DNA of 64,000 nucleotides from a virus, in IMG/VR virus record IMGVR_UViG_3300045988_184134; one strand, 5' to 3'. Position 1 is the stretch's first letter, and every line of letters begins with the position of its first letter. This document shows, piece after piece, positions 3,667 through 30,603 of this stretch. Made by a program: the position numbers and the translations under genes. A model generated the notes under the pieces. The model was not told where the DNA came from and searched no databases. It worked only from the letters and a program-made list of their open reading frames with translations.

Positions 3667-4824
3667 TTACGGCTTGCAATACCCGCAAGGTGTATAGCCC
3701 TGCTCGATTAGGTCATCGCGGGAACCTGTATAGTCTTTGCGGTTTGCATCGCTCATTTGAGCTACGGCGGAGCAGTCAGGCTTATGAAATTTCATAGAGT
3801 TTGTGTTCAGGACATAGGTACTGACCGTCGTATCCTTTTGCTGTGACTCCTCGACCTCGACTGTATCGGTGGTAGTGCTTTCTGCCGCCTGGTGATATTC
3901 GCCATAAGTGAAAGTGACGTCCTTACCGTCCGATGTGCAGTAGATGTCTCCCATCTCGTCAGTTCTGAAAACCTCAATGTCTTTGCTCTGGAGCTTTGCC
4001 AAAGTGATGTCGTGTGGATGACCATAGCTGTTGTCCTTGCCACAGGAAATAACAGCATAGGCTGGATTCACTGTGTCGAGGAATGCTTCGGATGTGGAGG
4101 TTCGAGAACCATGATGCCCTACCTTCAGAACAGTAGATTGGATGTCTTGTCCAGACTGTAGGATAACATCTTCGGCAGGCTCTTCTGCATCACCCGTAAA
4201 CAAGAATGAGGTTTCTCCATATACGATGCGTAGGACAATGGAGGTATTGTTGGTATCATCCGGCACTGAGTTCACGGCGATAACAGTCACTTCGGCATCG
4301 CCAAGGGAGAATGTATCCCCTACCGACGGAATCGTAAGGCCGTTGCCTCTTTCTTCCGCTCGCTGCTTGAAGTTCCGAAAAGCTTTACTGTCGTACTCTG
4401 TGACAGGGCAATACGTGACATCAGCCGTCACGGCTTCGAATGCACCGGAAAGACCTCCGATATGGTCTTCATGGGCGTGCGTGCCAACAACATAATCCAG
4501 ATGTCCGTCTGTCTCACGTTCCAGAACAGAATATACGAGGTCAGAATCATCAACATTGCCACCGTCAATGAGCATCGAATGCCCATCACAGGTAACAAGA
4601 GCAGAGTCCGCCTGCCCCACATCAATGAAGTGGATAGTAAAGCTGCCGTCTTCCGTTACGCCAGCCGTCTGCTCGCTGTCAGAGACAGGACTTTCTGAGA
4701 CGACCCCGGATACAGGAAGACTACCCGAATCAATCGGGGTCTGACCGCAGCCTGCGAAGCTGAGGGTGAAGAGTGCCGCAATCGCTGCCGCTGCTCTCCG
4801 CAAGAATGTGTTTTTGCTTTGCAT
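3667..4824 (-). CDS. MBL-fold metallo-hydrolase lipoprotein with C-terminal Cys/His zinc-ribbon-like tail
   Basis: Lipobox LSFAGC after the signal peptide; HAHEDHIGG (HxHxDH) metallo-beta-lactamase motif; C-terminal H-K-P-x-C…C-G-Y-C-K-P motif. Confidence 0.7.
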   Translation of the reverse strand: MQSKNTFLRRAAAAIAALFTLSFAGCGQTPIDSGSLPVSGVVSESPVSDSEQTAGVTEDGSFTIHFIDVGQADSALVTCDGHSMLIDGGNVDDSDLVYSVLERETDGHLDYVVGTHAHEDHIGGLSGAFEAVTADVTYCPVTEYDSKAFRNFKQRAEERGNGLTIPSVGDTFSLGDAEVTVIAVNSVPDDTNNTSIVLRIVYGETSFLFTGDAEEPAEDVILQSGQDIQSTVLKVGHHGSRTSTSEAFLDTVNPAYAVISCGKDNSYGHPHDITLAKLQSKDIEVFRTDEMGDIYCTSDGKDVTFTYGEYHQAAESTTTDTVEVEESQQKDTTVSTYVLNTNSMKFHKPDCSAVAQMSDANRKDYTGSRDDLIEQGYTPCGYCKP

Positions 4825-12914: not shown

Positions 12915-13922
12915 TTACATAATTCGATGCAGATAGGATTTGTTGATTTCTACGAGCAACTCCTCGATTTTCGCAAAATCGGGTTTTGCCGGGAGTTCCG
13001 TTTTCTTCACGTCACGCTGGAATTTCGTTTCGAGCTGGTCCACAGACTCGAAGAATTCGGGTGCATACGACCCATCCTCACGCATATACTTGCCGTTGCG
13101 GATAGCCAGCAGTTCTTCGTGCTCCTTGTCCCGGCGGGTGATGATGCGTCCTTGCTCCAGAATGTCAAATGCTGTGTAATACAGTCTCACAAGGTGCATG
13201 GCGTGCTTATTGATATGGGCAGCATCCTTTTGCGCTTTCGGATGCTGCGGCTGTTCATACTGGTCGATAGTCGTTGTCAGACCTCGAAGCAGGGACTTGA
13301 GAGAGTTGACAGGATAGTTACTCAGATTTCCAGAAATCAAGAGAGGATGTTTGCCTTCAGAATCGACATCTTCACTGATGCTGATTTTGAAAACGTCATC
13401 TTTCCCTTGGCCTGCAACCAGGCGTTCAAGACTTCTCTTCTCAAACTTGTTTTTGAGTGCTTCCGGTGAAGTGCCATTACGAAGGAGACCCATCTGCAAG
13501 CGTCTGAGCTGGTCGTTTGCAAAGCCACCATAGCTATAGGCAACGCGCCGAGTCAGAAAAAGCTCCTTATTATCGAGCAGCATCTGTCCTTCAGAGGTCA
13601 TATTCACATACAGCTCCGGGTCGTTGCCAAGAAGCTCGATGACATTAGGATTGCATTGGACAAGCAAGTTTACGAACTTATTGATAACGTAGATAACTGT
13701 GTCTGTCTGATTATTGATAACTTGCTCAAAGCGGTTAAATCCCAAGATTTCAGGCGAACCGGCCGCACCACGGATGTCAACATCCGAGCCCTCGATATTC
13801 GTGCCGTAGGCGTGGCTGCCTCCGACGGTCAAAAACAGGATATTGTCTCCCAGATGCTTGATGGTACGTAAAAAATCGTATTCTTCGCGCTGGAGGATTG
13901 CTTTCAATTCTTCGTTGGTCAC
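12915..13922 (-). CDS. Pol-beta-superfamily nucleotidyltransferase with helical C-terminal domain
   Basis: GGSHAYGTNIEGSDVDIRG, the [GS]x9-SDxD NTase signature, followed by a third acidic position in TDTVIYV. Confidence 0.55.
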   Translation of the reverse strand: MTNEELKAILQREEYDFLRTIKHLGDNILFLTVGGSHAYGTNIEGSDVDIRGAAGSPEILGFNRFEQVINNQTDTVIYVINKFVNLLVQCNPNVIELLGNDPELYVNMTSEGQMLLDNKELFLTRRVAYSYGGFANDQLRRLQMGLLRNGTSPEALKNKFEKRSLERLVAGQGKDDVFKISISEDVDSEGKHPLLISGNLSNYPVNSLKSLLRGLTTTIDQYEQPQHPKAQKDAAHINKHAMHLVRLYYTAFDILEQGRIITRRDKEHEELLAIRNGKYMREDGSYAPEFFESVDQLETKFQRDVKKTELPAKPDFAKIEELLVEINKSYLHRIM

Positions 13923-13942
13923 TAAATCACTTCCTTACTACT

Positions 13943-14362
13943 TTATGTCAGCGCGGTGCATTCGGATTCAACCCGAATCAACTTTTCAGTCCGCCAATCA
14001 TATTCCAGCACGTCTTTGGCAACCACTGTGCTTCCCTCGATATATTCCAGAATTTGCCGCACACGCATGGGACGTTTCGCATCCTGTGCTATCCGTAGCG
14101 CTGCATCTCTGTACTCAACTGTGTATGCAGGCTCGTAGGTTACATACGGGCAGCCATCGGGTTGTGTCTGACGACTCAGCTCAAAGCGCGACCGGACGTA
14201 GCCGTTGTGCAGGGCATTACGGATGGCGCAAGCACTTTTTCTTTCGCCACTCTGTTCAAAGGTTTGTGCAATTTCCTCCACACACCGACAAAAATGCGTG
14301 GCATCTTGGCTGTGTTTTGCGAAAATCAGTTTTCGAATCAGCAGTGCTTCATCTTGACTCAC
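13943..14362 (-). CDS. hypothetical protein (139 aa)
   Basis: Intact ORF in operon arrangement downstream of the NTase. Confidence 0.45.
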   Translation of the reverse strand: MSQDEALLIRKLIFAKHSQDATHFCRCVEEIAQTFEQSGERKSACAIRNALHNGYVRSRFELSRQTQPDGCPYVTYEPAYTVEYRDAALRIAQDAKRPMRVRQILEYIEGSTVVAKDVLEYDWRTEKLIRVESECTALT

Positions 14363-14374
14363 GGCTCTCTCCTT

Positions 14375-14710
14375 TCACTTCTTCGTCGAGACCAAGAAGA
14401 CTCTTTTGGAGAAAGTTCCCTTCTCTGCTGCCTTCTGGCTTCTGACCTGTTCCACTTCCCTCTTAGAGACAGCGCAAGTCTTGCCCATAGCGTACAGAAC
14501 CTCCATGACGTCTGATATTTCCTCTGCAAAGTCCAGAACGCTCCGTTGCTTGGCGGTGTAGGCTTCCAGCAGTTCGGCAACCTCTTCTTTCAGTTTCTCA
14601 GCCAGAGCATCTTCGTACTCCTTATCAGACAGCTTACGGGTCACGCAGGTTTCTCCGTTTTTCTCAATAATAGCCGGGATATTATCCCGAACCAGCTTTT
14701 GAAACATCAT
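14375..14710 (-). CDS. MazG/HisE-like all-alpha NTP pyrophosphohydrolase
   Basis: KLVRDNIPAIIEKNG…EEVAELLEA…DFAEEISDVMEVLYAMG pattern. Start trimmed to the internal ATG so the gene abuts the upstream stop. Confidence 0.55.
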   Translation of the reverse strand: MMFQKLVRDNIPAIIEKNGETCVTRKLSDKEYEDALAEKLKEEVAELLEAYTAKQRSVLDFAEEISDVMEVLYAMGKTCAVSKREVEQVRSQKAAEKGTFSKRVFLVSTKK

Positions 14711-14714
14711 AGTT

Positions 14715-15131
14715 TTATCTTTCCTCCAGTTTACAGCGCCGCAGCGGTATGCGCAGCTCATGACAGGTGTATGCGGTTTCTCGTTCATCATCGGTTCCTT
14801 CAAAGACTACACAGCCTTTCTGCTGTTGCTTGGAAAGGTATGCGGGTAAATCATCGTTTGTGACAGATACAAATAGGTATCCACGCTCACTGGCGTACAT
14901 CGCAGCCAAGGCCGCAATCTTCTGCCCTGATTCTGCTACAATGACAACCTTATCTCGTTTTGCCAGCATCTTGTCGAGATACTCAGCTACCTGTTGGCGG
15001 TGCTTCCCCATCGCTTGCTGCGTGGCAGTAACACCACAAAAGAACCAATCCTTTTCGCAGATTCTGGCATCGCATTCCTTGCACTGAAGGTGGACCACGT
15101 TGCCATCTGTATAGGGGCAATAGCTGCTCAT
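14715..15131 (-). CDS. Cys-rich hypothetical protein (138 aa)
   Basis: C-x-x-C pairs CPYTDG…CKEC and ICEKDWFFC. Confidence 0.45.
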   Translation of the reverse strand: MSSYCPYTDGNVVHLQCKECDARICEKDWFFCGVTATQQAMGKHRQQVAEYLDKMLAKRDKVVIVAESGQKIAALAAMYASERGYLFVSVTNDDLPAYLSKQQQKGCVVFEGTDDERETAYTCHELRIPLRRCKLEER

Positions 15132-15652: not shown

Positions 15653-16132
15653 TTATCTCTTATTCGGCGACAAAACCCAAATCTCCACATTAGCGTTCCA
15701 CGCCTCAGCAGCTTCAGCAATGAGAGAAAAGACAGTGTCCCAATCACCGCCCGCCAGGCCGCAGCCGATGCTGCTCGGAATACGGATAGTTGCTTCCGGC
15801 GCAATTCTCGAACAATCTCGCATAAACGTAAACAATGCCGTTGCAAAGGCCGCATAGTTCGTCTGGCGTTCACCAATTCCATAGTTGTTTTGCCCAAACA
15901 GGTTCACCACATGAATGTTTGGCTCAACCTGGACTTTCTGGTAACTGCCAAGGAACTCCTTCCATGCCGGAATTTCCATATATTGCTGATACACAACGGG
16001 CCACTTACGGCGAATTTTGAGAGCAAGCCCCGCGCCCATCACGCCTCGACAATTCACCTGTTGACAGATGTAGACATCCTTGTTAGTAGGAAGATTCGTC
16101 AGGATGTCGCCGGAGATAATCTTGATGCTCAT
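15653..16132 (-). CDS. macro-domain protein (ADP-ribose binding / ADP-ribosylhydrolase-like)
   Basis: IISGDILT…DVYICQQVNCRGVMGAGLALKI fits the macro-domain N-terminal glycine-rich signature. Confidence 0.7.
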   Translation of the reverse strand: MSIKIISGDILTNLPTNKDVYICQQVNCRGVMGAGLALKIRRKWPVVYQQYMEIPAWKEFLGSYQKVQVEPNIHVVNLFGQNNYGIGERQTNYAAFATALFTFMRDCSRIAPEATIRIPSSIGCGLAGGDWDTVFSLIAEAAEAWNANVEIWVLSPNKR

Positions 16133-16136
16133 GTCC

Positions 16137-16736
16137 TCACTCCTTTATGACGGTATAGTTGCCCGTGGCAAAGCCCAGCAGCTTGTTGTAAAGTTCCGCA
16201 GCAATTTCAATGAATGTCTCGCTGCAAGGGCTTATCCTGTGCAGGAATCGCTTGTCTTGCTGCATAGACGATGCCATGTTAAAGGCAATGGCAAGAACCT
16301 TTTTCTGCATACGGCCGAAAGTCACGCCTCTCATTTCCACACTGTCAGGCGTCGCTGCCCACACGGATGCCTGTACTGTAATGGCCCACAGGTCCGCATC
16401 CCAGAATCGAGCGTTTTCGTTGCCCATCAAAGGCCGCATAATGCGCCAGGCGTTCGCATAGCTTTTGCCTTCGACATTATCAATGGCAGGGCCAAAGAAA
16501 CCGTCGGTTTTGTTGCTGAGTTCAATGAGACGCTCAGCCATCTTGGTGGCAGCGTAGGCCAGAGACTTGGCATCGGTGTCGTTCATTTCGATAGTCAGCT
16601 CTTCCCCATCGGGCTTGATGTACTTATACTTGTTCTCACCGATGGCTGCACTCTCCCACAGGATGCAGGGCAGTTCCTTCAGCACGGTCTTGCTTGCACC
16701 AGCCTTCGCTTTTTCAATATAACTGCTGTTTGACAT
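16137..16736 (-). CDS. hypothetical protein (199 aa) translationally coupled to the macro gene
   Basis: Stop is 4 nt from the macro start codon. Confidence 0.5.
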   Translation of the reverse strand: MSNSSYIEKAKAGASKTVLKELPCILWESAAIGENKYKYIKPDGEELTIEMNDTDAKSLAYAATKMAERLIELSNKTDGFFGPAIDNVEGKSYANAWRIMRPLMGNENARFWDADLWAITVQASVWAATPDSVEMRGVTFGRMQKKVLAIAFNMASSMQQDKRFLHRISPCSETFIEIAAELYNKLLGFATGNYTVIKE

Positions 16737-17555: not shown

Positions 17556-17876
17556 TTAGCCTTCGATATCGAAAGTGTAGCCCTTCACGGTCATAGTGAC
17601 CAGGCCGCTGCAAGACTTGCACTTTACGCCGTCCAGGCTGACATCGAGAGTCAGGCTGGAATCTTCGTTGTCCAGCCAGCTGGGCCGCATGTAGGCAGCG
17701 AGGTCGTGCAGCGCACCGATGACGTAAGCAACCAGGTCCTCATCATCCAGAGTCTGAGCAATCACGTCGTTTTCCTTGTCAGCGGGAAAGCCGATGGAAG
17801 CGGTGATGCTGTCAAGGGTGTTGTCGCCCTTGGAACGGAAAGCGGTGGCGCTGAACTCAATCAGGTTGGTACTCAT
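17556..17876 (-). CDS. hypothetical protein (106 aa), paralogue of 18065..18385
   Basis: Shares FSATAFRS…WLDNEDSSLTLD… with the neighbouring cassette; has its own promoter and terminator. Confidence 0.5.
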   Translation of the reverse strand: MSTNLIEFSATAFRSKGDNTLDSITASIGFPADKENDVIAQTLDDEDLVAYVIGALHDLAAYMRPSWLDNEDSSLTLDVSLDGVKCKSCSGLVTMTVKGYTFDIEG

Positions 17877-18064: not shown

Positions 18065-18385
18065 TTAGTCTTCGAAATTGAAGGTGAAGCCACTTTCTTT
18101 CATAGCGACAAGGCCGCCGCGCGTCTGACATTTGTTTCTATCGAGAAAGGTTTCAAGCGTCAGGCTGGTGTCCTCATTGTCCAGCCATTTGGGGCGCAGG
18201 TCGCTGATAAGGTTGTACAGTGCTGCGACAGCATGGACAATCAGTTTCTCTTCGCCCAGCATGTTTCCAATCACTTCGTCGTCGTTCTCCACAGGGACGC
18301 TGATGGAAGCCGAGAGACTTTCGAGGTTGTTGTTGTCATCGTTGCGGAATGCGGTAGCTTCGAATTTGAGAGTACAAGTGTTCAT
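18065..18385 (-). CDS. hypothetical protein (106 aa), paralogue of 17556..17876
   Basis: AAAGGAGAA RBS before the internal Met MNTCTLKFEATAF; similar terminator to the sister cassette. Confidence 0.5.
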   Translation of the reverse strand: MNTCTLKFEATAFRNDDNNNLESLSASISVPVENDDEVIGNMLGEEKLIVHAVAALYNLISDLRPKWLDNEDTSLTLETFLDRNKCQTRGGLVAMKESGFTFNFED

Positions 18386-18435
18386 TTTTGATGTTCTCCT
18401 TTGTATGTTATTTGGTTTTCCTTGCACTTTAAATT

Positions 18436-18470
18436 GTACGCAGTTCGCAAGGGTAGTCAATCGGTCCAAT
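18436..18470 (-). promoter_or_regulatory. promoter TTGACT-N16-TACAAT (spacer TTGCGAACTG) for 18065..18385
   Basis: Sequence match. Confidence 0.5.
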
Positions 18471-18551
18471 AGCGCAGAATCCGGCTGGGTCGGATTTTGC
18501 AAAAAAAAATTTTGCGCAGTTAATTTTTCCTTTTACATATTTTTTATAAAT

Positions 18552-21029: not shown

Positions 21030-21647
21030 TTATTTCGTTTCTTTCTTCGGATAGACACCGCTCGTTGTAGCCGTAAACAGCTTTTGGAAGATTGCTACAG
21101 CTACCAGGCAGAACCTCTCTGATTTTGTTCTTCCTTCTACTTGCAGGCAGCCGCTTTCCTGAATTTGTAGCAGCGCCTTATAGATGGCTCCATAGATGGT
21201 CTTTCGGAGGTCTGCATCTTCTTTGAGTACAACCACGATGTCTTTCGATGCCCAGGTGCAGACGCACATGAGTTCTGAAAACTTTTCGTCTTCTCCTTCA
21301 AAGGCCAGCTTCCCGCCGGGTGCGAAAGCTGCAAGTGCCAGTTTGTAAAGCTCCTCGTCATCTTTTGGCGTTTCGAGTTTGTCAGACTCTTTTGTGGCAT
21401 CCCATACTTTAAGGATGCCGTCAGCATATTTTGCCGACATGAAAGCAAGTCTGGTTCGCGTAAAATCGTTTGCCTTTACACGCTGCTCAGTTTCGGGATT
21501 GTAACAGGTCGTACTATCTACAATGTACTGCTGCTTCATCGTCGTCTCGATAGCTCGAACTGCAGGCATCAGACTTTTTGTATAGCTTTCAAGGGCTTGA
21601 AAGCCTTTATCCCCTTCGCTATTGCGATTCTTGTAATTGCACTTCAT
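21030..21647 (-). CDS. hypothetical protein (205 aa)
   Basis: Intact ORF in operon spacing. Confidence 0.45.
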   Translation of the reverse strand: MKCNYKNRNSEGDKGFQALESYTKSLMPAVRAIETTMKQQYIVDSTTCYNPETEQRVKANDFTRTRLAFMSAKYADGILKVWDATKESDKLETPKDDEELYKLALAAFAPGGKLAFEGEDEKFSELMCVCTWASKDIVVVLKEDADLRKTIYGAIYKALLQIQESGCLQVEGRTKSERFCLVAVAIFQKLFTATTSGVYPKKETK

Positions 21648-21658
21648 AGATGACTCCG

Positions 21659-22270
21659 TTACGCAATAGAATTAACCATATCCAGCTCCATACAGAAAAG
21701 TACGAAGGCCAGGTTGGTGATTTTATCGGCATCTGTATCGAGATGCCTGCCGAGTTCCTTGACCGCGCCGCCGTCCTTGAGGCTCTTGGCCGCCTGGTAG
21801 ATGAGCATGTAGGTGTTGACGTAGATAGCCTGCTGTTTCACGCGGTCCTTGGTAATGTGCTCCGGCATGCAATCCTCTGACAGCGACTTAATGAGCGGAT
21901 ACCAGCAGGAAAGGTACAAAGCACCATCCTCATCGTTCATCGCCTGCTGAATCTTGACCTGATACTTCGGGTAGTTGCCATTCACGACCTCAATGAACTC
22001 GGTATCTTTGAACTCATCGCGGTGGCAGTGAAGCCACAGGATAGCGTTGGCAAGGTCCATGCAGATAAGCGCCAGCTTTTCGGCTTTGGAATCATCCAGC
22101 TGAACCGTATCGAAGCTGTCAGCATCGATGTCATACTGCTTGTAAATGTTCACCAGCTTGTAGCTGTTCTCCCCTGCGCGTACCTTCTTCTTGATGAAGT
22201 CGGTAAAGTCGTGCGCCAAGGCCTCATAGGCTTTCTGCTGCTCTTCGGCAATCGTATTCTGTTCGCTCAT
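21659..22270 (-). CDS. hypothetical protein (203 aa), paralogue of 23498..24109
   Basis: Start trimmed to the Met with AAAGGAGAA-CTCAAC-ATG. Shares YKLVNIY and EDCMP…KSLK.GG…DADKI.NLAF with the paralogue. Confidence 0.5.
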   Translation of the reverse strand: MSEQNTIAEEQQKAYEALAHDFTDFIKKKVRAGENSYKLVNIYKQYDIDADSFDTVQLDDSKAEKLALICMDLANAILWLHCHRDEFKDTEFIEVVNGNYPKYQVKIQQAMNDEDGALYLSCWYPLIKSLSEDCMPEHITKDRVKQQAIYVNTYMLIYQAAKSLKDGGAVKELGRHLDTDADKITNLAFVLFCMELDMVNSIA

Positions 22271-22284
22271 GTTGAGTTCTCCTT

Positions 22285-22728
22285 TTATCTTAATTTGGTC
22301 CTGATTTCTTCGAGCATCATGCCCAGTTTGTTCTGACCGTGAACGCCCTTGCATCTGGGACACTGGCAGTCGCCCCAATAGTTATCGTGCCAGCCTGTCG
22401 TGTCCTCAATAATGTGCCGGTCGCCTGTAGCGAGCAGTCGCTGTTTGAACTCTTCGTTCTGGTTGAACTTGGCATACAGCACCCGGCGCATCGCTTCGTC
22501 TCGAACTTTGTCCCAATCTGGAGAAAGTTGGACCCGGCGGCCGAGTCGCTTAGCCTCGTTCGGCATGAGACAGGCAAACTGGCGTCTTTCCTCCGGCGGG
22601 ACCTTTTGTGCCTGGAACGCTGCCTCCGCGTTGAGGTAGTAGATTCCATCTAGCACAAAGGAGCAAGGATAATAATTGCTCAGAAACCCGTAGGTCGGGT
22701 CGTCTTTCTTAAACCGCAGCAGATTCAA
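22285..22728 (-). CDS. NADAR-domain protein (YbiA-like N-glycosidase / ADP-ribose processing)
   Basis: YGFLSNYYPCSFVLDGIYYLNAEAAFQAQK…EAKRLGRRV…DWDKVRDEAMRRVLYAKFNQNEEFKQRLLATGDRHIIEDTT matches the NADAR signature. TTG start with GGAGGG RBS, overlapping the upstream stop. Confidence 0.65.
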   Translation of the reverse strand: MNLLRFKKDDPTYGFLSNYYPCSFVLDGIYYLNAEAAFQAQKVPPEERRQFACLMPNEAKRLGRRVQLSPDWDKVRDEAMRRVLYAKFNQNEEFKQRLLATGDRHIIEDTTGWHDNYWGDCQCPRCKGVHGQNKLGMMLEEIRTKLR

Positions 22729-23371
22729 TGTGCATTCCCTCCATAACCCCGGCGGGCGTATCTTTGAGAACCTTGTAGCGCATCGTCGTGGCACCAAGCA
22801 GACCGTTGAAGACGGTCACGGCGGTATGCACGAACAGAGGGTTCTGCAAGGTCATCTTGCCGTTTGTATCCCACTGGCCTTTGAGTTCAGCGGCCGCATC
22901 GTACACAACCATCATCATGGCTTCATACATGTCGGACATCAGCTGTCGGTCGTACTTCTTCAAAGCATAGTAGCTTGGTAGGTTGTAAACGCGGCCGAGG
23001 AGCGGCTCGTCATACAAGGGCGAACCTTTCGCAACCATCGTATTGTAGACTTTGGGCCAGGCAGCTTCTTTCGGCTTGCCGGTGGTTGCCTGCATCTCGA
23101 TGTTCTTGAAACCAGCCGTCATGTTGTACAGCACCATGAGCCGCTCGGCAAGCAAGACGGAAGATTCAGCCAGGTGCTTTGCTTCCTCATTGGTCATCGC
23201 AACCTGCATGGCCGTGCTGTCCGAGTCGTTGCCATAATAGAAATACTGCTTGCGCCCGGCGGCAGCTTTCTGTACGAGCTTCTTTGCCAGCTGGCTTTCG
23301 ATGTAATTGTAGATGTCGTTTTCCAACTCACAGGTGATGTGCGTTGCGGTATAATGGATATTTTTGTTCAT
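22709..23371 (-). CDS. hypothetical protein (220 aa) co-transcribed with NADAR
   Basis: Stop overlaps the NADAR start; preceded by leader/terminator module copy 7. Confidence 0.5.
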   Translation of the reverse strand: MNKNIHYTATHITCELENDIYNYIESQLAKKLVQKAAAGRKQYFYYGNDSDSTAMQVAMTNEEAKHLAESSVLLAERLMVLYNMTAGFKNIEMQATTGKPKEAAWPKVYNTMVAKGSPLYDEPLLGRVYNLPSYYALKKYDRQLMSDMYEAMMMVVYDAAAELKGQWDTNGKMTLQNPLFVHTAVTVFNGLLGATTMRYKVLKDTPAGVMEGMHIESAAV

Positions 23372-23403
23372 TGGTTTACCTCTTTGTGTATAATAAAAAG
23401 AAA

Positions 23404-23490
23404 GAGCGGTCGAGCCGCTCTCCTCAAAACACTTATTTAGCTTACAATTTTCATTCTATGCAATTCGCACAGACACGCAAGGCAAAATGG
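23404..23490 (-). promoter_or_regulatory. module copy 7, short form (TTGCGT-N16-TAGAAT promoter, then terminator, then RBS of 22709..23371)
   Basis: TGTGCGAATTG spacer motif; hairpin GAGAGCGGCTCGACCGCTCTTTC plus U5. Confidence 0.5.
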
Positions 23491-23497
23491 CGACGCC

Positions 23498-24109
23498 TCA
23501 CGGATTCATCTCGTAGGCAATCAGTGCATCGTTGAAATACTTGAAAGCAAGATTTCCGATTTTATCTGCGTCTTTCGGCAGCTTGTCCACCATGCGTTTG
23601 ATGGAACCACCTGTCTTGAGAGACTTCATTGCCAGGTGAACATTCCAGTACATGTTGGTGTATACCAGCTGCCACTTCTTTTTGTCTCCAACATAGGCAT
23701 CCGGCATACAGTCTTCTGCCACAAGGCGAATAAGCATGTCCCACGCATCCAGGTAGAGAGGACTTGTATCATCGTTCAGCTTATGGATGATTTGCTTCAG
23801 ATAGGAAGTGTAGTCTTCCCCACTGATGTCAACAAGCTCGATGTCTGCGAACTTGTCGCGGAAGTAATACAGCCAAAGCGTTGCTTTCGCAAGGTCACAG
23901 CTGGCCGCAGCAAGCAGCTGAGCTTTCTGGTCCTGCAAAGTCACAATCTTGGCATCAGGGTCATCCAAGCCCTTCTCACCATAGAGATTGACCAGCTTGT
24001 ACTGGTCTTTGCCGACTCTATCCTCTCTGCGGATAAACTCTTTGAAGTCTTCCACGAAGGCAATGTATGCCTGGACCTGTGGGTCGTTTTTCGGGTTGAA
24101 CTCACTCAT
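23498..24109 (-). CDS. hypothetical protein (203 aa), paralogue of 21659..22270
   Basis: AAAGGAGAAGCGCAC-ATG; promoter with CGTTCGAATTG spacer at 24133..24165. Confidence 0.5.
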   Translation of the reverse strand: MSEFNPKNDPQVQAYIAFVEDFKEFIRREDRVGKDQYKLVNLYGEKGLDDPDAKIVTLQDQKAQLLAAASCDLAKATLWLYYFRDKFADIELVDISGEDYTSYLKQIIHKLNDDTSPLYLDAWDMLIRLVAEDCMPDAYVGDKKKWQLVYTNMYWNVHLAMKSLKTGGSIKRMVDKLPKDADKIGNLAFKYFNDALIAYEMNP

Positions 24110-25366: not shown

Positions 25367-26257
25367 TTATACATGGTTCACCTCCAGGCATTCATTACAG
25401 ACAGTGCGGTAATAATCTGCCGTAGGCTGCTCGCCTTTAGGAAGCGGCATGATGGGCTTGACATGAAGGCTCACACCCTCCGTCGGTGAGCGGCCGCAGA
25501 GAGTGCAGCGGAACCCATCACGCTGCAGGACTGAGTGACGAAGCTCGGCAGATGCTGCTTTGCGAGCTGCTGCCCGTCTTTGCTTTTCTGCCTCATGTTC
25601 CTTTGCCAGCCTGACAAACTCCTTGGCCTCTGCCATAGAATATGTACGTGTCTCAGAGAGTGTCTTCCCTCTTGTGGGAGTATACTGCTTGACAGCATGG
25701 AAGACCGGCTGCGTGACAGGCGTGCCATATACCGCATCATTCACGAGTTTCTGTTCCCACTTGTGATAGAGGCAAAACGGCACTCGGCGGCCACAATCGT
25801 CATCTTTCTCCGTCCAGTTGGGCAGGTCTTCGAGTTCTTTTTTGTACATTCCAAACTGGACGTTGTTGCTATTGGCCCAACCGAAGACCTCTTCAAACGC
25901 ATCAATTTTCTTCTGGACGGTGCTCATAAAGAGCCGGTCAAAAGAAGCGTTTTCATAGTCTTCCTTCGTATCTTGAGGATACTCCAGCGTGATTTCCGCA
26001 TCGACATCATAGAACTCATAGCCTTGATTGATTTCTCGTAGCCCATCGAGGATGTTACTCGTCTGTTCTACATTCTTCTTGGCATGACGTGTGACCAGAA
26101 ACCAGATGAGCCCGATAATTCCCAGCAAGCCTGCTGCCACCAGCACAATATCCAAGGGCGTTATCATTGCCATTTGGTCCTCAATCCAGAACGAAAACTC
26201 GTCCGGCATGTCAATCAGCCAATCACCAAAGTCAATTGGCTTACCGTAGTTGTACAT
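25367..26257 (-). CDS. membrane protein with C-terminal degenerate HNH-like zinc finger
   Basis: TM helix near the N-terminus. C-terminal FRCTLCGRS…LHVKPIMP…TVCNECLEVNH resembles HNH, with the D-H pair replaced by K-P. Confidence 0.45.
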   Translation of the reverse strand: MYNYGKPIDFGDWLIDMPDEFSFWIEDQMAMITPLDIVLVAAGLLGIIGLIWFLVTRHAKKNVEQTSNILDGLREINQGYEFYDVDAEITLEYPQDTKEDYENASFDRLFMSTVQKKIDAFEEVFGWANSNNVQFGMYKKELEDLPNWTEKDDDCGRRVPFCLYHKWEQKLVNDAVYGTPVTQPVFHAVKQYTPTRGKTLSETRTYSMAEAKEFVRLAKEHEAEKQRRAAARKAASAELRHSVLQRDGFRCTLCGRSPTEGVSLHVKPIMPLPKGEQPTADYYRTVCNECLEVNHV

Positions 26258-26359: not shown

Positions 26360-26785
26360 TTATGCAAATATAGATAGAATTCGATATACGATGCCGACTG
26401 CAACAAGCATAAGCACCGGAATCCAGCTACCGAATGTCATGGGCTGGTCTTCCCTGCAGCAAAATGCTCTTTTTGGGTTCCCGCTCGGAAAATAGAACAT
26501 CCTTGGCTCCGGGTAGTCATTCTGTTGGCGGCGCTTTGTATATATCCTGCCTTCAAACTCAAATTGATATGTGACGGAATAGTTGTGGCTCTTATAGGCA
26601 GGTTCATTGGAGTTATACGGCTTGTCTTGGATTTTGACAGGCGTTGCCATAGCGCAGTAGCCTTTGTCTTTTGCCGAATGTATTTTCTCTTCATAGGTTT
26701 TAAACCAACGAGGGTGGGTAGCAACCGGAATACCAATACAGATGATGACGATAAATGTTGAGATTGCGAATAAAGCGATATTCAT
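26360..26785 (-). CDS. two-TM membrane protein (DUF3592-like topology)
   Basis: N- and C-terminal hydrophobic helices flank a beta-rich middle. Confidence 0.45.
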   Translation of the reverse strand: MNIALFAISTFIVIICIGIPVATHPRWFKTYEEKIHSAKDKGYCAMATPVKIQDKPYNSNEPAYKSHNYSVTYQFEFEGRIYTKRRQQNDYPEPRMFYFPSGNPKRAFCCREDQPMTFGSWIPVLMLVAVGIVYRILSIFA

Positions 26786-28056
26786 TGCCAGTCTCTCCCA
26801 TAAACTCTGATATCAGGAGGATATTCGGTAAGCGTTTTGTATTCTTCTTCGCTCGCATCTACCCGTCCCCAAATGAATTTACCGTCAGCCAAAATATAGA
26901 CTTGAGCAATAGTAAGGTCAGAAATGAGCTCCGCCTGTTTCTTGGTAAGATGGCATACTTTTGCCACCTCTGGAACTAGATGGCTCCAAATGTGGTGATA
27001 TACCTGAACATCGGCATCAAGCATAATTTCGTGAAGAAACGCAAGGTCTTCGTCATAGTTAAAGACGCTGGTTGCGGAAATTACTGTGCAGTTGTTCAGC
27101 ATTGCGTTCTGGCAAATATATTTACTCCAGCCCAGCGTGGTGTCTTGCTCCAGCATATAAGGACCATACTTCATAACGTCTTGACTTTCGCCAAAAAACA
27201 CATCGCACAACAAGATGGCTTTTTTGTCTGCATCGTTTTGCATCCGTTCACTCAGGATTTCAAAACAGTAAGCCATCATAAATTCTTTGGCGCTGTTATC
27301 TTTGTTGATTTTGCCTTTATACTCCATAAAGTCCAAAACAAGGAATGGACTGTCCCAATCAATATCTGTCTTGTAGTTGAACCAGCCATAGGGACCGTCA
27401 ACGAAAAGCGAAAGCCGGTCAGCAAATTCTTCAAGCTCTTTCACTTTTGAAAGTTTAATGGTCATGTACAGGTCTTTGATGGTAGGAAACTCTTTGTACT
27501 GGTTTGTCCCTTCTACAAACAGGCTCGCGTTGTCAAGCGTAATGCCTTTCTTTTTGTAAACCTCATGCAGCATCATGTCCAAAAGAGCAGTTTGCTTTGG
27601 TATAATGCCGGGCATCAGAGTCTTAAACACAGCCAGCAATTCACGAATTTTTCTCTCCAGCACAGAACCTTTACATCTATCCTCGTTTGGTTTACGTATA
27701 TCGAACAAATTGATGTGAGCGTTTTCGCCAAGGAAAACGGTTTTACCGCCCAACAGGTCGCACATATATCCATATTTCTGTCGGCTCAACCCGCTCACAA
27801 GAACTGTTGCCTGCGCCCCTTCTTTGCAAAGCCGATAGAGAATAAGCTTGCTGGTGAAATTCTTGCCTGTACCGTGGCTCCCCACGATAGAAATGACCGA
27901 GCTCCTGTGCTTAGAAGAATCTGTCATATTGAAGGACAGTTCTCCTATTTCCGGCTCAAACCACCAGCGATTGGCAATGCAAATGCCACCATCTTCGTGA
28001 ATAACGTCTGGTTCAGGCGCTTTGACCGGCTCCTTTTTCTTAAAAAATGGAAACAT
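26782..28056 (-). CDS. P-loop NTPase (HerA/FtsK/VirB4-like ATPase domain)
   Basis: Walker A SIVGSHGTGKNFTSK; Walker-B-like ILLCDVFFGES. Confidence 0.5.
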   Translation of the reverse strand: MFPFFKKKEPVKAPEPDVIHEDGGICIANRWWFEPEIGELSFNMTDSSKHRSSVISIVGSHGTGKNFTSKLILYRLCKEGAQATVLVSGLSRQKYGYMCDLLGGKTVFLGENAHINLFDIRKPNEDRCKGSVLERKIRELLAVFKTLMPGIIPKQTALLDMMLHEVYKKKGITLDNASLFVEGTNQYKEFPTIKDLYMTIKLSKVKELEEFADRLSLFVDGPYGWFNYKTDIDWDSPFLVLDFMEYKGKINKDNSAKEFMMAYCFEILSERMQNDADKKAILLCDVFFGESQDVMKYGPYMLEQDTTLGWSKYICQNAMLNNCTVISATSVFNYDEDLAFLHEIMLDADVQVYHHIWSHLVPEVAKVCHLTKKQAELISDLTIAQVYILADGKFIWGRVDASEEEYKTLTEYPPDIRVYGRDWQ

Positions 28057-29233: not shown

Positions 29234-29734
29234 TCACAGTGCAGCCAGATAGTGAATCGCCATCTTTGCAAACCCGATAGCAGATACAAGGCACCATCCT
29301 GCTTTTCCAGCCCAGATAACCTTTGTATAGATGGGTAATACCTTTCGGACCGGCTCCAATTTCCCGAATGCAAGAGGAATTGCAGATACCATCAGCAGCG
29401 AAATATCAAACGCTAAACAAACAAATACAGTTAAACAGTAGTTCAGCATGAGTTGAGCTTCGACCTTATTGACTTCAATTAAGCGCAAAGCCAACAAAGC
29501 AAATGCCGTTGAAATCACACAGCTAATGACAAGGATTCGTACCGTATGGTTCAGAGTATCCTCGGGTGATAGGTATTTTCTTTTGCCGCAGCAATAGGTT
29601 ACTTCTTGGAAGGCTTTACGCCCAAAATACAAGTTATAAACACCACTTGCGGCAAAAAGGATAGCAGTCACAAAGAACAGCGCCGCTCTGCAAATATCAA
29701 CGATACCCATAGGAATCAGAAGGAGAACTTGCAC
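29234..29734 (-). CDS. multi-pass membrane protein (166 aa)
   Basis: Four or five hydrophobic segments. Confidence 0.45.
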   Translation of the reverse strand: MQVLLLIPMGIVDICRAALFFVTAILFAASGVYNLYFGRKAFQEVTYCCGKRKYLSPEDTLNHTVRILVISCVISTAFALLALRLIEVNKVEAQLMLNYCLTVFVCLAFDISLLMVSAIPLAFGKLEPVRKVLPIYTKVIWAGKAGWCLVSAIGFAKMAIHYLAAL

Positions 29735-30603
29735 TCACGGCGCTCGCGGCCATTGCCGCACCAATAGTGCCGCCAGGTGGGAGCCTTACCGTTCGCTTCC
29801 TTCTTGTAACGCTCCATCAGATAATGGCCCACCACAAAGGTCTTGATATTGACTTTCTTGGTCTGGCCCTTGAACGTAAAGACAGGACGTTCGTCCTTTT
29901 TCGGGCTGTCCAGACGAATCTCCACGCCTTTGCTGGCAAGGTAGTAGGCACACAGCATTGCGAGACGGACATAGGGCGTGCCTTCGCCGTAAACAGACGG
30001 GATAGCGTCCAGCGTTTCAGGAATAGTGATGTCATCTTTATCGCGGGTCGAAGATGCCTTTTCGATGTACTGTTTCGTGCTGCGAGTCGCCTCCGTCAAG
30101 CTCTGACCCTCCTTAATCCAAGCGGGAAGGGACAGGAACGCGAAGTTCTCCTTCTCGTTCTGGACGGGGCCGACAAGGACGATGCCAACGAAGGTGTCAT
30201 CCGTCTTTGTATCGAACTCGATATGCACGAACATGCCGCAGTAGTCCACGCTGTTGTACAGAGGCACATAGAAGTTCTTGAACGGCAGGCGCTCCAGCAC
30301 CTCGCGATGGAGAGTGAGGTCATCGGTATCCATCAGCAGTTCCAGAAAATCCTTGCCGAAATCGTAGATGACCTTGGTCTTGTTCCAGTTGGCGATGGTG
30401 TAGCACGGGAAAATCTGGGCAGCCAGCACCTTTTCAAATCCAGGCTGCTGCATCTGCTGGGCAACACGCAGGCACTGAAGCGTAGCGCTCTTGGTGAATT
30501 CGTCCAGCGTCTTGCCGCAGGGGTCCTCAAAATCGAAGCCGGTACGGGTCGAGCGAGTAACGGCATTGGCGGTGAGTGCGATACGAACCTGTTCAGAAGT
30601 CAT
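29716..30603 (-). CDS. hypothetical protein (295 aa)
   Basis: GGAGGA RBS. Confidence 0.5.
   Translation of the reverse strand: MTSEQVRIALTANAVTRSTRTGFDFEDPCGKTLDEFTKSATLQCLRVAQQMQQPGFEKVLAAQIFPCYTIANWNKTKVIYDFGKDFLELLMDTDDLTLHREVLERLPFKNFYVPLYNSVDYCGMFVHIEFDTKTDDTFVGIVLVGPVQNEKENFAFLSLPAWIKEGQSLTEATRSTKQYIEKASSTRDKDDITIPETLDAIPSVYGEGTPYVRLAMLCAYYLASKGVEIRLDSPKKDERPVFTFKGQTKKVNIKTFVVGHYLMERYKKEANGKAPTWRHYWCGNGRERRECKFSF

Follow-up and report, generated by a model that had tools for sequence, protein, structure and literature searches.

Layout of the NADAR locus

We analyzed a 64,000-nucleotide (nt) stretch of DNA, the IMG/VR virus record IMGVR_UViG_3300045988_184134 (hereafter the window, meaning the whole stretch at its full length), whose source we call a large phage-like mobile element of gut Firmicutes. 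The analysis centers on a gene for a NADAR-domain protein, on the gene directly upstream of it, which encodes a protein of 220 amino acids (aa), and on a second pair of genes in the same window in which the enzyme is a macrodomain. Coordinates are positions in the window, and all genes in this part of it lie on the minus strand (-). The first pair is made up of the following features:

22285..22728 (-), NADAR gene; 147 aa, TTG start at 22728, predicted member of the YbiA-type ADP-ribosyl / N-glycoside hydrolase family
22738..22742 (-), GGAGG ribosome-binding site of the NADAR gene, inside the 220-aa gene; read from the sequence
22709..23371 (-), gene of the 220-aa helical partner, subfamily A; ATG start, AGAGG ribosome-binding site
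23401..23423 (-), terminator-like hairpin and T-run, between the paralogue at 23498..24109 and the 220-aa gene; predicted by pattern scan

An earlier reading of this locus from the sequence alone (the sequence-only reading) had described a 220-aa protein encoded upstream of the NADAR gene and overlapping its start; this was confirmed, the end of the 220-aa gene and the start of the NADAR gene sharing 20 nt in a tightly coupled arrangement. The GGAGG element is spaced 9 nt from the TTG start, and the same 147-aa product is also called by gene callers on related contigs. The position of the NADAR ribosome-binding site within the partner gene, together with the overlap, suggests translational coupling of the pair. 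The hairpin predicted upstream of the 220-aa gene has a 9-bp stem with 5 G-C pairs and a T-rich tail, and the pattern scan found no terminator-like site between the 220-aa gene and the NADAR gene. Since the next gene (21659..22270) begins 14 nt past the NADAR stop, the pair opens a longer polycistronic block and is not an isolated two-gene operon. When compared with a relative of 91% identity, the ratio of nonsynonymous to synonymous substitution rates (dN/dS) was 0.07 (220-aa gene) and 0.09 (NADAR gene), and purifying selection was found in all six genes examined in this manner; thus, the 220-aa and NADAR genes are real, constrained genes.

The NADAR is of the YbiA type

The NADAR signature noted at 22285..22728 by the sequence-only reading proved to be a full-length match to Pfam PF08719 (E-value 9.9e-29; score 101.1 bits, cutoff 35.1; covering positions 2-163 of the 163 in the profile). 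Among structures of the PDB, the best match was to E. coli YbiA (2b3w, 2e-16), followed by the NADAR of P. nicotianae (8bau, 2.5e-12). Residues E35, K42, D115, and W118 of the window NADAR align with both of these proteins, and E35 and K42, spaced by seven residues, align to the catalytic Glu/Lys pair of Schuller et al. (PMC11543638), which is defined by E43/K50 in the P. nicotianae NADAR and E88/K95 in the E. coli C7 NADAR. A further glutamate, E108 in IIEDTTGWHDNYWG, aligns with the YbiA-type Glu in the YbiA segment LVEHTENDAYWG (the E125-equivalent position). All five residues (E35, K42, E108, D115, and W118) are invariant across the 166 relatives collected. Judged from these alignments, the 147-aa NADAR is full-length and its catalytic residues are intact.

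The class of the NADAR was assigned from its residues and its profile scores. In NADARs linked to DarT1, an Asp located two residues ahead of the conserved Glu is reported to be functional (D171 in the C7 NADAR; PMC11543638), and the AdfN group is reported to have a His in place of this Glu (PMC11257639); the window NADAR has an Ile two positions before E108. Its domain begins at residue 6, such that only 5 residues precede it and there is no N-terminal extension. In the NCBIfam scan, the protein passed TIGR02464 ('riboflavin biosynthesis intermediates N-glycosidase') with 87.5 bits where 73.7 are required, and scored far below the DS32_2 'NADAR anti-phage' model, while the cutoff of PF08010 (gp30.3) was not reached (33.3 bits against 36). 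The PADLOC scan returned PDC-M42C as the only match, with none to any DarG model. By these measures, the NADAR is YbiA-type and is neither DarG1-like (DarT1-linked) nor T4 AdfN-like. At the place of the YbiA loop GDGGHGKG, it carries a CxCxxC insert (GDCQCPRCKGVHG; residues 121-126, window 22361..22378) that is common to about a quarter of the relatives (~44 of 166) and may be a zinc knuckle.

Relatives of the NADAR were found in 710 deposited phage records, with the best matches, at 46-50% identity, in SPbeta-like phages, AR9, and PBS1. Orphan NADARs are thus already known from mobile elements, as some 700 deposited phages carry a relative. The GTDB representative genomes held no close relative (best NADAR match there, 53%).

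At 40-50% identity, the relatives in phages and Clostridia have recurrent neighbors that include nicotinamide adenine dinucleotide (NAD) synthase, NAMPT, nicotinamidase-like isochorismatase, Prs, Tpt1/KptA, Thg1, macrodomain, and a protein joining reverse transcriptase to SLOG, which is a classic 'NAD and ADP-ribose' context. An anti-DarT role for the NADAR is plausible only, because these relatives sit among NAD-salvage genes. The NADAR could instead serve nucleotide or NAD metabolism, clearing reactive riboflavin intermediates as YbiA does, or processing ADP-ribose-derived small molecules in NAD turnover or NAD-depleting defense. This explanation agrees with the passing TIGR02464 score, with YbiA as the nearest solved structure, and with the NAD synthase, NAMPT, isochorismatase-like, Prs, Tpt1, and macrodomain genes that flank the 40-50% relatives, yet annotation scans found no NAD synthase, NAMPT, Prs, Tpt1, or other NAD-salvage or riboflavin gene anywhere in the window. 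It is further countered by the finding that every NADAR class tested, YbiA included, hydrolyzes ADP-ribosylated guanine in vitro (PMC11125620, PMC11833690), and by the DarG-class macrodomain of the parallel cassette (see below), which points to ADP-ribosylated macromolecules. A metabolic role of this sort is in our estimation quite unlikely.

Apart from these considerations, the reverse transcriptase adjoining NADAR relatives was found to be fused to a YAcAr SLOG domain in locus L117 (8520..9950) and in 11 other loci (phage contigs), where the fusion gene is accompanied by NAD-salvage genes and Tpt1/KptA.

The partner belongs to a small helical family

The 220-aa partner gave no match in scans of Pfam, PHROGs, PADLOC, and NCBIfam, nor did its paralogues, and a tblastn search with it against 50,697 phage records returned nothing. 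Just 14 matches were detected among 1.84 billion representative proteins, and three near-identical matches in a set of 5.8 billion proteins. The AlphaFold2 (AF2) model of the partner, built on an alignment of 11 sequences, is of reasonable confidence and combines bundled helices with a small sheet of three strands (predicted local distance difference test [pLDDT] 79, predicted template modeling score [pTM] 0.78). No structural homologue of this model was found, no sequence or fold similarity was detected to any PDB chain, and the family profile run against PDB sequences retrieved designed helical proteins only, at an E-value of about 0.5.

The N-terminus of the 220-aa protein is MNKNIHYTATHIT. 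Its string NIHYTATHIT had been thought to faintly recall DarT; this likeness was not upheld, as there is no profile match, the helical model is not an ADP-ribosyltransferase (ART) fold, and the motif is not conserved across the family, the THIT string being kept only within subfamily A. From its helical AF2 model, therefore, the partner is not an ART or DarT. A DarT identity, as defined by an ART fold with NAD-binding motif and catalytic Glu and by the DUF4433 / PADLOC DarT profiles, was also rejected. Homology to AdfA (T4 gp61.2) was not detected either: hhalign of the partner profile gave a probability of 0.1%, and tblastn with the partner matched no phage record.

Profiles of the partner family were run against the 295 open reading frames (ORFs) of the window, with the first profile built without the other window copies. 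This profile matched 16137..16736 (1e-83), 23498..24109 (3e-10), and 21659..22270 (4e-9), with 21030..21647 marginal (0.005); a second profile test recovered 23498..24109 at 2e-6 and 21659..22270 at 8e-7. A profile built solely on subfamily B sequences of elements other than that of the window matched the 220-aa protein at 3e-19. BLASTP of the 220-aa against the 199-aa protein gave 24% identity over 177 aa (E-value 1e-11), and the products of 21659..22270 and 23498..24109 are 42% identical. The copies in the window other than the 220-aa gene are:

21659..22270 (-), 203-aa paralogue, subfamily C; first gene past the NADAR stop
23498..24109 (-), 203-aa paralogue, subfamily C; upstream of the hairpin at 23401..23423
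21030..21647 (-), 205-aa candidate fifth paralogue, marginal; C-terminal motif aligns colinearly
16137..16736 (-), 199-aa paralogue, subfamily B; coupled to the macrodomain gene

The subfamilies are composed as follows:

Subfamily A, the 220-aa protein and 184-aa relatives
Subfamily B, the 199-aa protein and 203-208-aa relatives
Subfamily C, the two 203-aa window proteins

On this profile evidence, the 220-aa partner is a member of a tiny, previously undescribed, element-specific helical family with four to five copies in the window. The sequence-only reading had overlooked these paralogues and the fact that a second one is coupled likewise to a macrodomain.

A second cassette pairs subfamily B with a macrodomain

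The ORF at 15653..16132 was examined because a chimeric relative of the family (P0033) ends in a macrodomain-like tail:

15653..16132 (-), 159-aa macrodomain gene, assigned to the SCO6735/DarG/TARG1 class; second candidate eraser

The Pfam Macro profile matched the 159-aa protein below its cutoff (E-value 0.033; 14.6 bits against 22). PDB matches were to SCO6735 (5e3b, 2e-14, residues 7-141) and BT1257 (2fg1, 1e-10), with weaker matches to DarG (5m3i/5m31, 1e-5) and TARG1 (0.01). By these PDB matches, the protein is a macrodomain of the SCO6735/DarG/TARG1 class, and the macro domain that had been placed in the same element from the sequence is thereby substantiated. A gap of 4 nt separates the macrodomain ATG from the stop codon of the 199-aa paralogue gene, whose last codons contain the macrodomain ribosome-binding site, AAGGAG. 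Read from the gene order and the family assignments, the window holds two parallel cassettes, separated by 6 kb from the NADAR pair to the macrodomain, in each of which a helical partner is followed by an ADP-ribose eraser, and the folds of the two erasers are unrelated.

Downstream of the macrodomain, a block at 12915..15131 (-), which is also conserved in locus L010, contains 70-aa, 138-aa, and 139-aa genes, a MazG/PRA-PH-like pyrophosphohydrolase gene (14375..14803), and an RlaP nucleotidyltransferase gene (12915..13922). This block may represent an RNA-repair or nucleotide-related context of the macrodomain.

The pairings recur in a subfamily-specific manner

The order of subfamily A followed by the NADAR is present in window-type elements (L001, L007, L092, and L093) as well as in a sister clade (L094 and L175-L182), in which the partner is 36-41% and the NADAR 60% identical to those of the window. 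The sister clade differs from the window in its flanks, with a 731-aa DEAD/SNF2 helicase encoded upstream of the pair and variable genes downstream, and its subfamily A partner is abundant, forming 86 clusters at 90% identity, of which one was seen in 141 index blocks. Subfamily B followed by the macrodomain was found in 49 of the 81 IMG/VR loci with a relative of the macrodomain, at gaps of -4 to +4 nt and with 36-41% identity for the partner and 54-58% for the macrodomain; L010-L012 have this order as well. Each pairing is specific to one subfamily, with A found beside the NADAR only and B beside the macrodomain only. In two variants, L183 and L184, subfamily A is retained and the NADAR lost.

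These variants bear on whether the pair could be a toxin-antitoxin module like DarT1-NADAR or YarT-YbiA, with the 220-aa protein as a novel toxin and the NADAR as its antitoxin. The order of a candidate toxin gene followed by the NADAR gene, their overlap, and a first product of some 220 aa do resemble DarT-DarG, and a NADAR of the YbiA type is the proven antitoxin of the ART YarT (PMC11125620). Set against these resemblances, the partner has no DarT or ART profile match and several paralogues have no antitoxin-like neighbor; moreover, the toxin reading is disfavored by L183 and L184, which still encode the partner although the NADAR is gone, a loss that a toxin could not survive. We rejected the 220-aa partner as a toxin on its fold, its paralogy, and the variants without the NADAR, and regard such a module as very improbable.

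Fused ORFs were also considered as Rosetta-stone evidence, but none qualified: P0052 and P0054 arose by frameshift read-through, and deletions produced the chimeras P0031, P0009, and P0033. Chimeric ORFs are numerous in this island, including P0006/L184 6001..6702, P0024, P0026/L007 10001..10762, P0010, P0031, and P0033/L183. They join (i) a partner with HNH; (ii) a partner with a macrodomain tail; (iii) a partner with the C-terminal half of a NADAR; or (iv) a P-loop ATPase with a partner, and derive from deletion or recombination between paralogues or neighbors. As read from these ORFs, the island is a rearrangement hot spot.

Proposed orphan erasers with candidate accessory partners

Based on features seen directly, namely the gene structures, the enzyme family with its catalytic residues, the paralogy, and the conserved pairings, we propose that the NADAR may be an active orphan eraser that counters the ADP-ribosylation of nucleic acids by host defenses, and that the partner may serve it as a non-enzymatic accessory. 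This is the best supported of the readings considered, and one for which we see an even balance of belief and doubt. From these features we infer the substrate, the counter-defense role, and any physical or functional link of partner to eraser. The NADAR would strip ADP-ribose from guanine in the DNA or RNA of the element after a host attack of the DarT1 or ScARP type, and the macrodomain would do likewise for thymine- or phosphate-linked ADP-ribose. Each partner would be made in step with its eraser (A with the NADAR and B with the macrodomain) and would most plausibly bind and block the cognate transferase or direct the eraser to its substrate. The scheme of partner and eraser is proposed by analogy to DarG2, which combines an eraser with a toxin-binding domain, and to AdfA/AdfB. 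The sequence-only reading, which suggested broad counter-defense, is partly supported; neutralization of DarTG1 by phage NADARs and of DarTG2 by phage macrodomains has been published (PMC11257639, PMC13309987). The cassettes also lie in an accessory, anti-defense-rich part of the element, as indicated by an AcrVA2-like gene and by cas genes beside the island in relatives.

Several observations weigh against the proposal of a counter-defense eraser with an accessory partner. With regard to the pairing, NADARs of 54-57% identity in L095-L099 have no family member within 6 kb, and the NADAR of L010 (5920..6882, 56% identical) has no subfamily A neighbor; this L010 NADAR has a C-terminal extension of ~170 aa that belongs to no recognized family and might substitute for the missing partner. 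The macrodomain is without subfamily B in 32 of the 81 loci, the sister clade included, and part of the conservation of the subfamily B-macrodomain pair is ordinary synteny, since genes downstream are also conserved in L010. Two or three of the paralogues, including subfamily C, have no adjoining eraser, and the window alone gives adjacency no significance because about one third of the genes in the local cluster are paralogues. The AF2 model of P0054, a natural partner-NADAR fusion used as a proxy for the complex, was uninformative (pLDDT 44, pTM 0.40). With regard to function, the partner resembles neither AdfA nor any PDB entry in sequence or fold, the NAD-salvage neighbors of the 40-50% NADAR relatives fit a metabolic or NAD-linked role, and E. 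coli YbiA and the T4 NADAR, though they hydrolyzed ADP-ribosylated guanine in vitro, gave cells no rescue from DarT1 in one study (PMC11125620).

The principal alternative is that the genes are adjacent by common descent with no functional link, the helical family being an independent accessory set (e.g., other anti-defense factors) that happens to be abundant in this island, and the erasers acting alone like the single-domain orphan erasers of other phages. The erasers without partners in relatives and the two to three paralogues without erasers speak for this alternative, as does the description of NADARs as working mostly as single-domain proteins (PMC11257639); an island rich in deletion chimeras and rearrangements, with a high local density of paralogues, makes chance adjacency plausible. 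Descent alone accounts less readily for a pairing that is subfamily-specific, that persists across clades at ~40% partner identity and, for subfamily A and the NADAR, with changed flanks, and in which the junctions always fall at -4 to +22 nt with the ribosome-binding site of the eraser inside the partner gene. We judge this alternative to be somewhat unlikely.

A bolder form of the proposal of erasers with accessory partners is that the helical family would constitute a new class of accessory subunits, the subfamilies of which pair with non-homologous erasers as split, DarG-like counter-defense cassettes; this form, drawn by analogy, is tentative and we hold it to be unlikely. The enzymes themselves are of ordinary, known kinds, and orphan NADAR and macrodomain erasers are already established phage counter-defenses against DarTG. 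The new part is that one small uncharacterized family is repeatedly paired, in the same coupled layout, with erasers of two unrelated folds, and that this is seen in many phage-like elements of the gut. Should the partners prove to bind the ADP-ribosyltransferases of the host or to guide the erasers, they would represent an anti-defense component of a new type and would help to explain erasers that are protective only in their native context.

The element and its neighboring genes

The window is almost wholly one unidirectional block of genes whose products are mostly uncharacterized. Those recognizable include an AcrVA2-like protein, a Y-family polymerase, a UvrD-like helicase, RlaP, a YpsA SLOG protein, a sortase, an S26 peptidase, a ComEC-type metallo-beta-lactamase (MBL) protein, YqaJ, and a Toprim primase-like protein. 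In annotation scans, no structural or conjugation gene of the window could be clearly identified, and a megablast of 18-30 kb of it against phage and plasmid collections gave no match. Proteins identical to those of the window were found on metagenome scaffolds of 197-237 kb, and IMG/VR lists related contigs, 84-346 kb in length, as viral. For some window genes, the best annotated match is in SPbeta-like phages.

Other genes of the island were also examined. The 295-aa product of 29716..30603 (-) has homologues of 59% identity in L094 and L184 and a syntenic position in L001, L007, and L173; the homologues carry a precomputed match to the AcrVA2-like Pfam family PF26125, whereas a direct Pfam scan at E<=1e-3 reported none. 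This gene is a possible anti-CRISPR gene in the same island. Type I-C cas genes (Cas3, Cas5d, Csd1, and Cas7) lie within a few kb of the cassettes in L010 (18329..20612), L182 (4733..6750), and L183 (8372..11944), and L182 also encodes an IS605 OrfB / Cas12f-like TnpB. The MBL-fold protein of 3667..4824 (-) is closest to the ComEC/Rec2 nuclease domain (TIGR00361 at 8e-40, below cutoff), with weaker matches to the defense MBLs Avs1a and 6A-MBL and a faint precomputed match to Apyc1; as a ComEC-type protein, it was not counted as an Apyc1-like anti-defense gene. The adjoining ORFs 18065..18502 and 17556..17876 (-) are apparent duplicates, with one 106-aa protein of L184 matching them at 54% and 49%. 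The 296-aa product of 25367..26257 (-) has a C-terminal HNH-like motif (PHROG HNH matches at ~1e-4), and the 424-aa P-loop ATPase of 26782..28056 (-) has weak TraG/Torsin-like matches only; neither gene settles whether the element is of phage or conjugative nature.

Comparison with known systems

All NADAR classes tested, including YbiA, hydrolyze ADP-ribosylated guanine in DNA and RNA (PMC11543638, PMC11125620, PMC11833690), and the reversal of guanine ADP-ribosylation on RNA has been described in its own right (PMC11833690). Diverse phage NADARs, AdfN among them, neutralize DarTG1, and NADARs are described as mostly single-domain proteins (PMC11257639). The orphan phage NADARs T4 AdfN/gp30.3, NADAR-Bas32, and NADAR-Bas60 are, like that of the window, single-domain proteins with no extension that are carried on a mobile element with no cognate toxin, and the chemistry expected of them, removal of ADP-ribose from guanine, would be the same. 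The window NADAR differs from the AdfN group in keeping the Glu that is a His in AdfN, in scoring below the PF08010 cutoff, and in being coupled to a helical partner that is unreported for those phages.

E. coli YbiA shares with the window NADAR an extension-free core and the conserved E, K, E, D, and W residues. The window NADAR is distinguished by its mobile element, its CxCxxC insert, and its anti-defense-like context, whereas proteins of the YbiA/TIGR02464 kind occur in a LexA-controlled chromosomal operon or as a riboflavin fusion, in a metabolic context. DarG1, the DarT1-associated antitoxin of the BC4488 subfamily, is of the same superfamily and expected reaction; unlike it, the window NADAR has no basic N-terminal extension, no Asp equivalent to D171 (Ile instead), and no adjoining DarT1. 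The DarT1-linked NADAR of G. lovleyi, whose structure is solved (PMC11543638), was unmatched by phmmer against the PDB at E<=0.01, assuming its presence in the copy searched.

For the second cassette, the phage macrodomain AdfM counters DarTG2 (PMC13309987), and SCO6735 has been discussed as a remover of thymine- and phosphate-linked ADP-ribose (PMC11833690). Like AdfM of chimalliviruses, the window macrodomain is a phage-borne orphan, nearest to SCO6735 and detectably similar to the macrodomains of DarG; it differs from AdfM and the SCO6735-type proteins in being paired with a helical partner of subfamily B. DarG2, with its macrodomain and C-terminal DarT2-binding domain, likewise unites an eraser and a non-enzymatic helper, a likeness to the window cassettes that is one of analogy only. 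In the window, the proposed helper is a separate polypeptide, encoded first with the eraser after it, and is found next to a macrodomain or a NADAR.

AdfA, which a strain table equates with T4 gp61.2 (PMC11257639), and AdfB inhibit DarT directly (PMC13309987). As small, non-enzymatic phage proteins of ~200 aa, they may have a functional likeness to the partner. Finally, the YarT-YbiA pair of myxobacteria places a YbiA-type NADAR beside a small protein, as does the window pair; however, YarT has an ART fold and is encoded downstream of YbiA, while the window partner is helical, is encoded upstream of the NADAR, and has paralogues.

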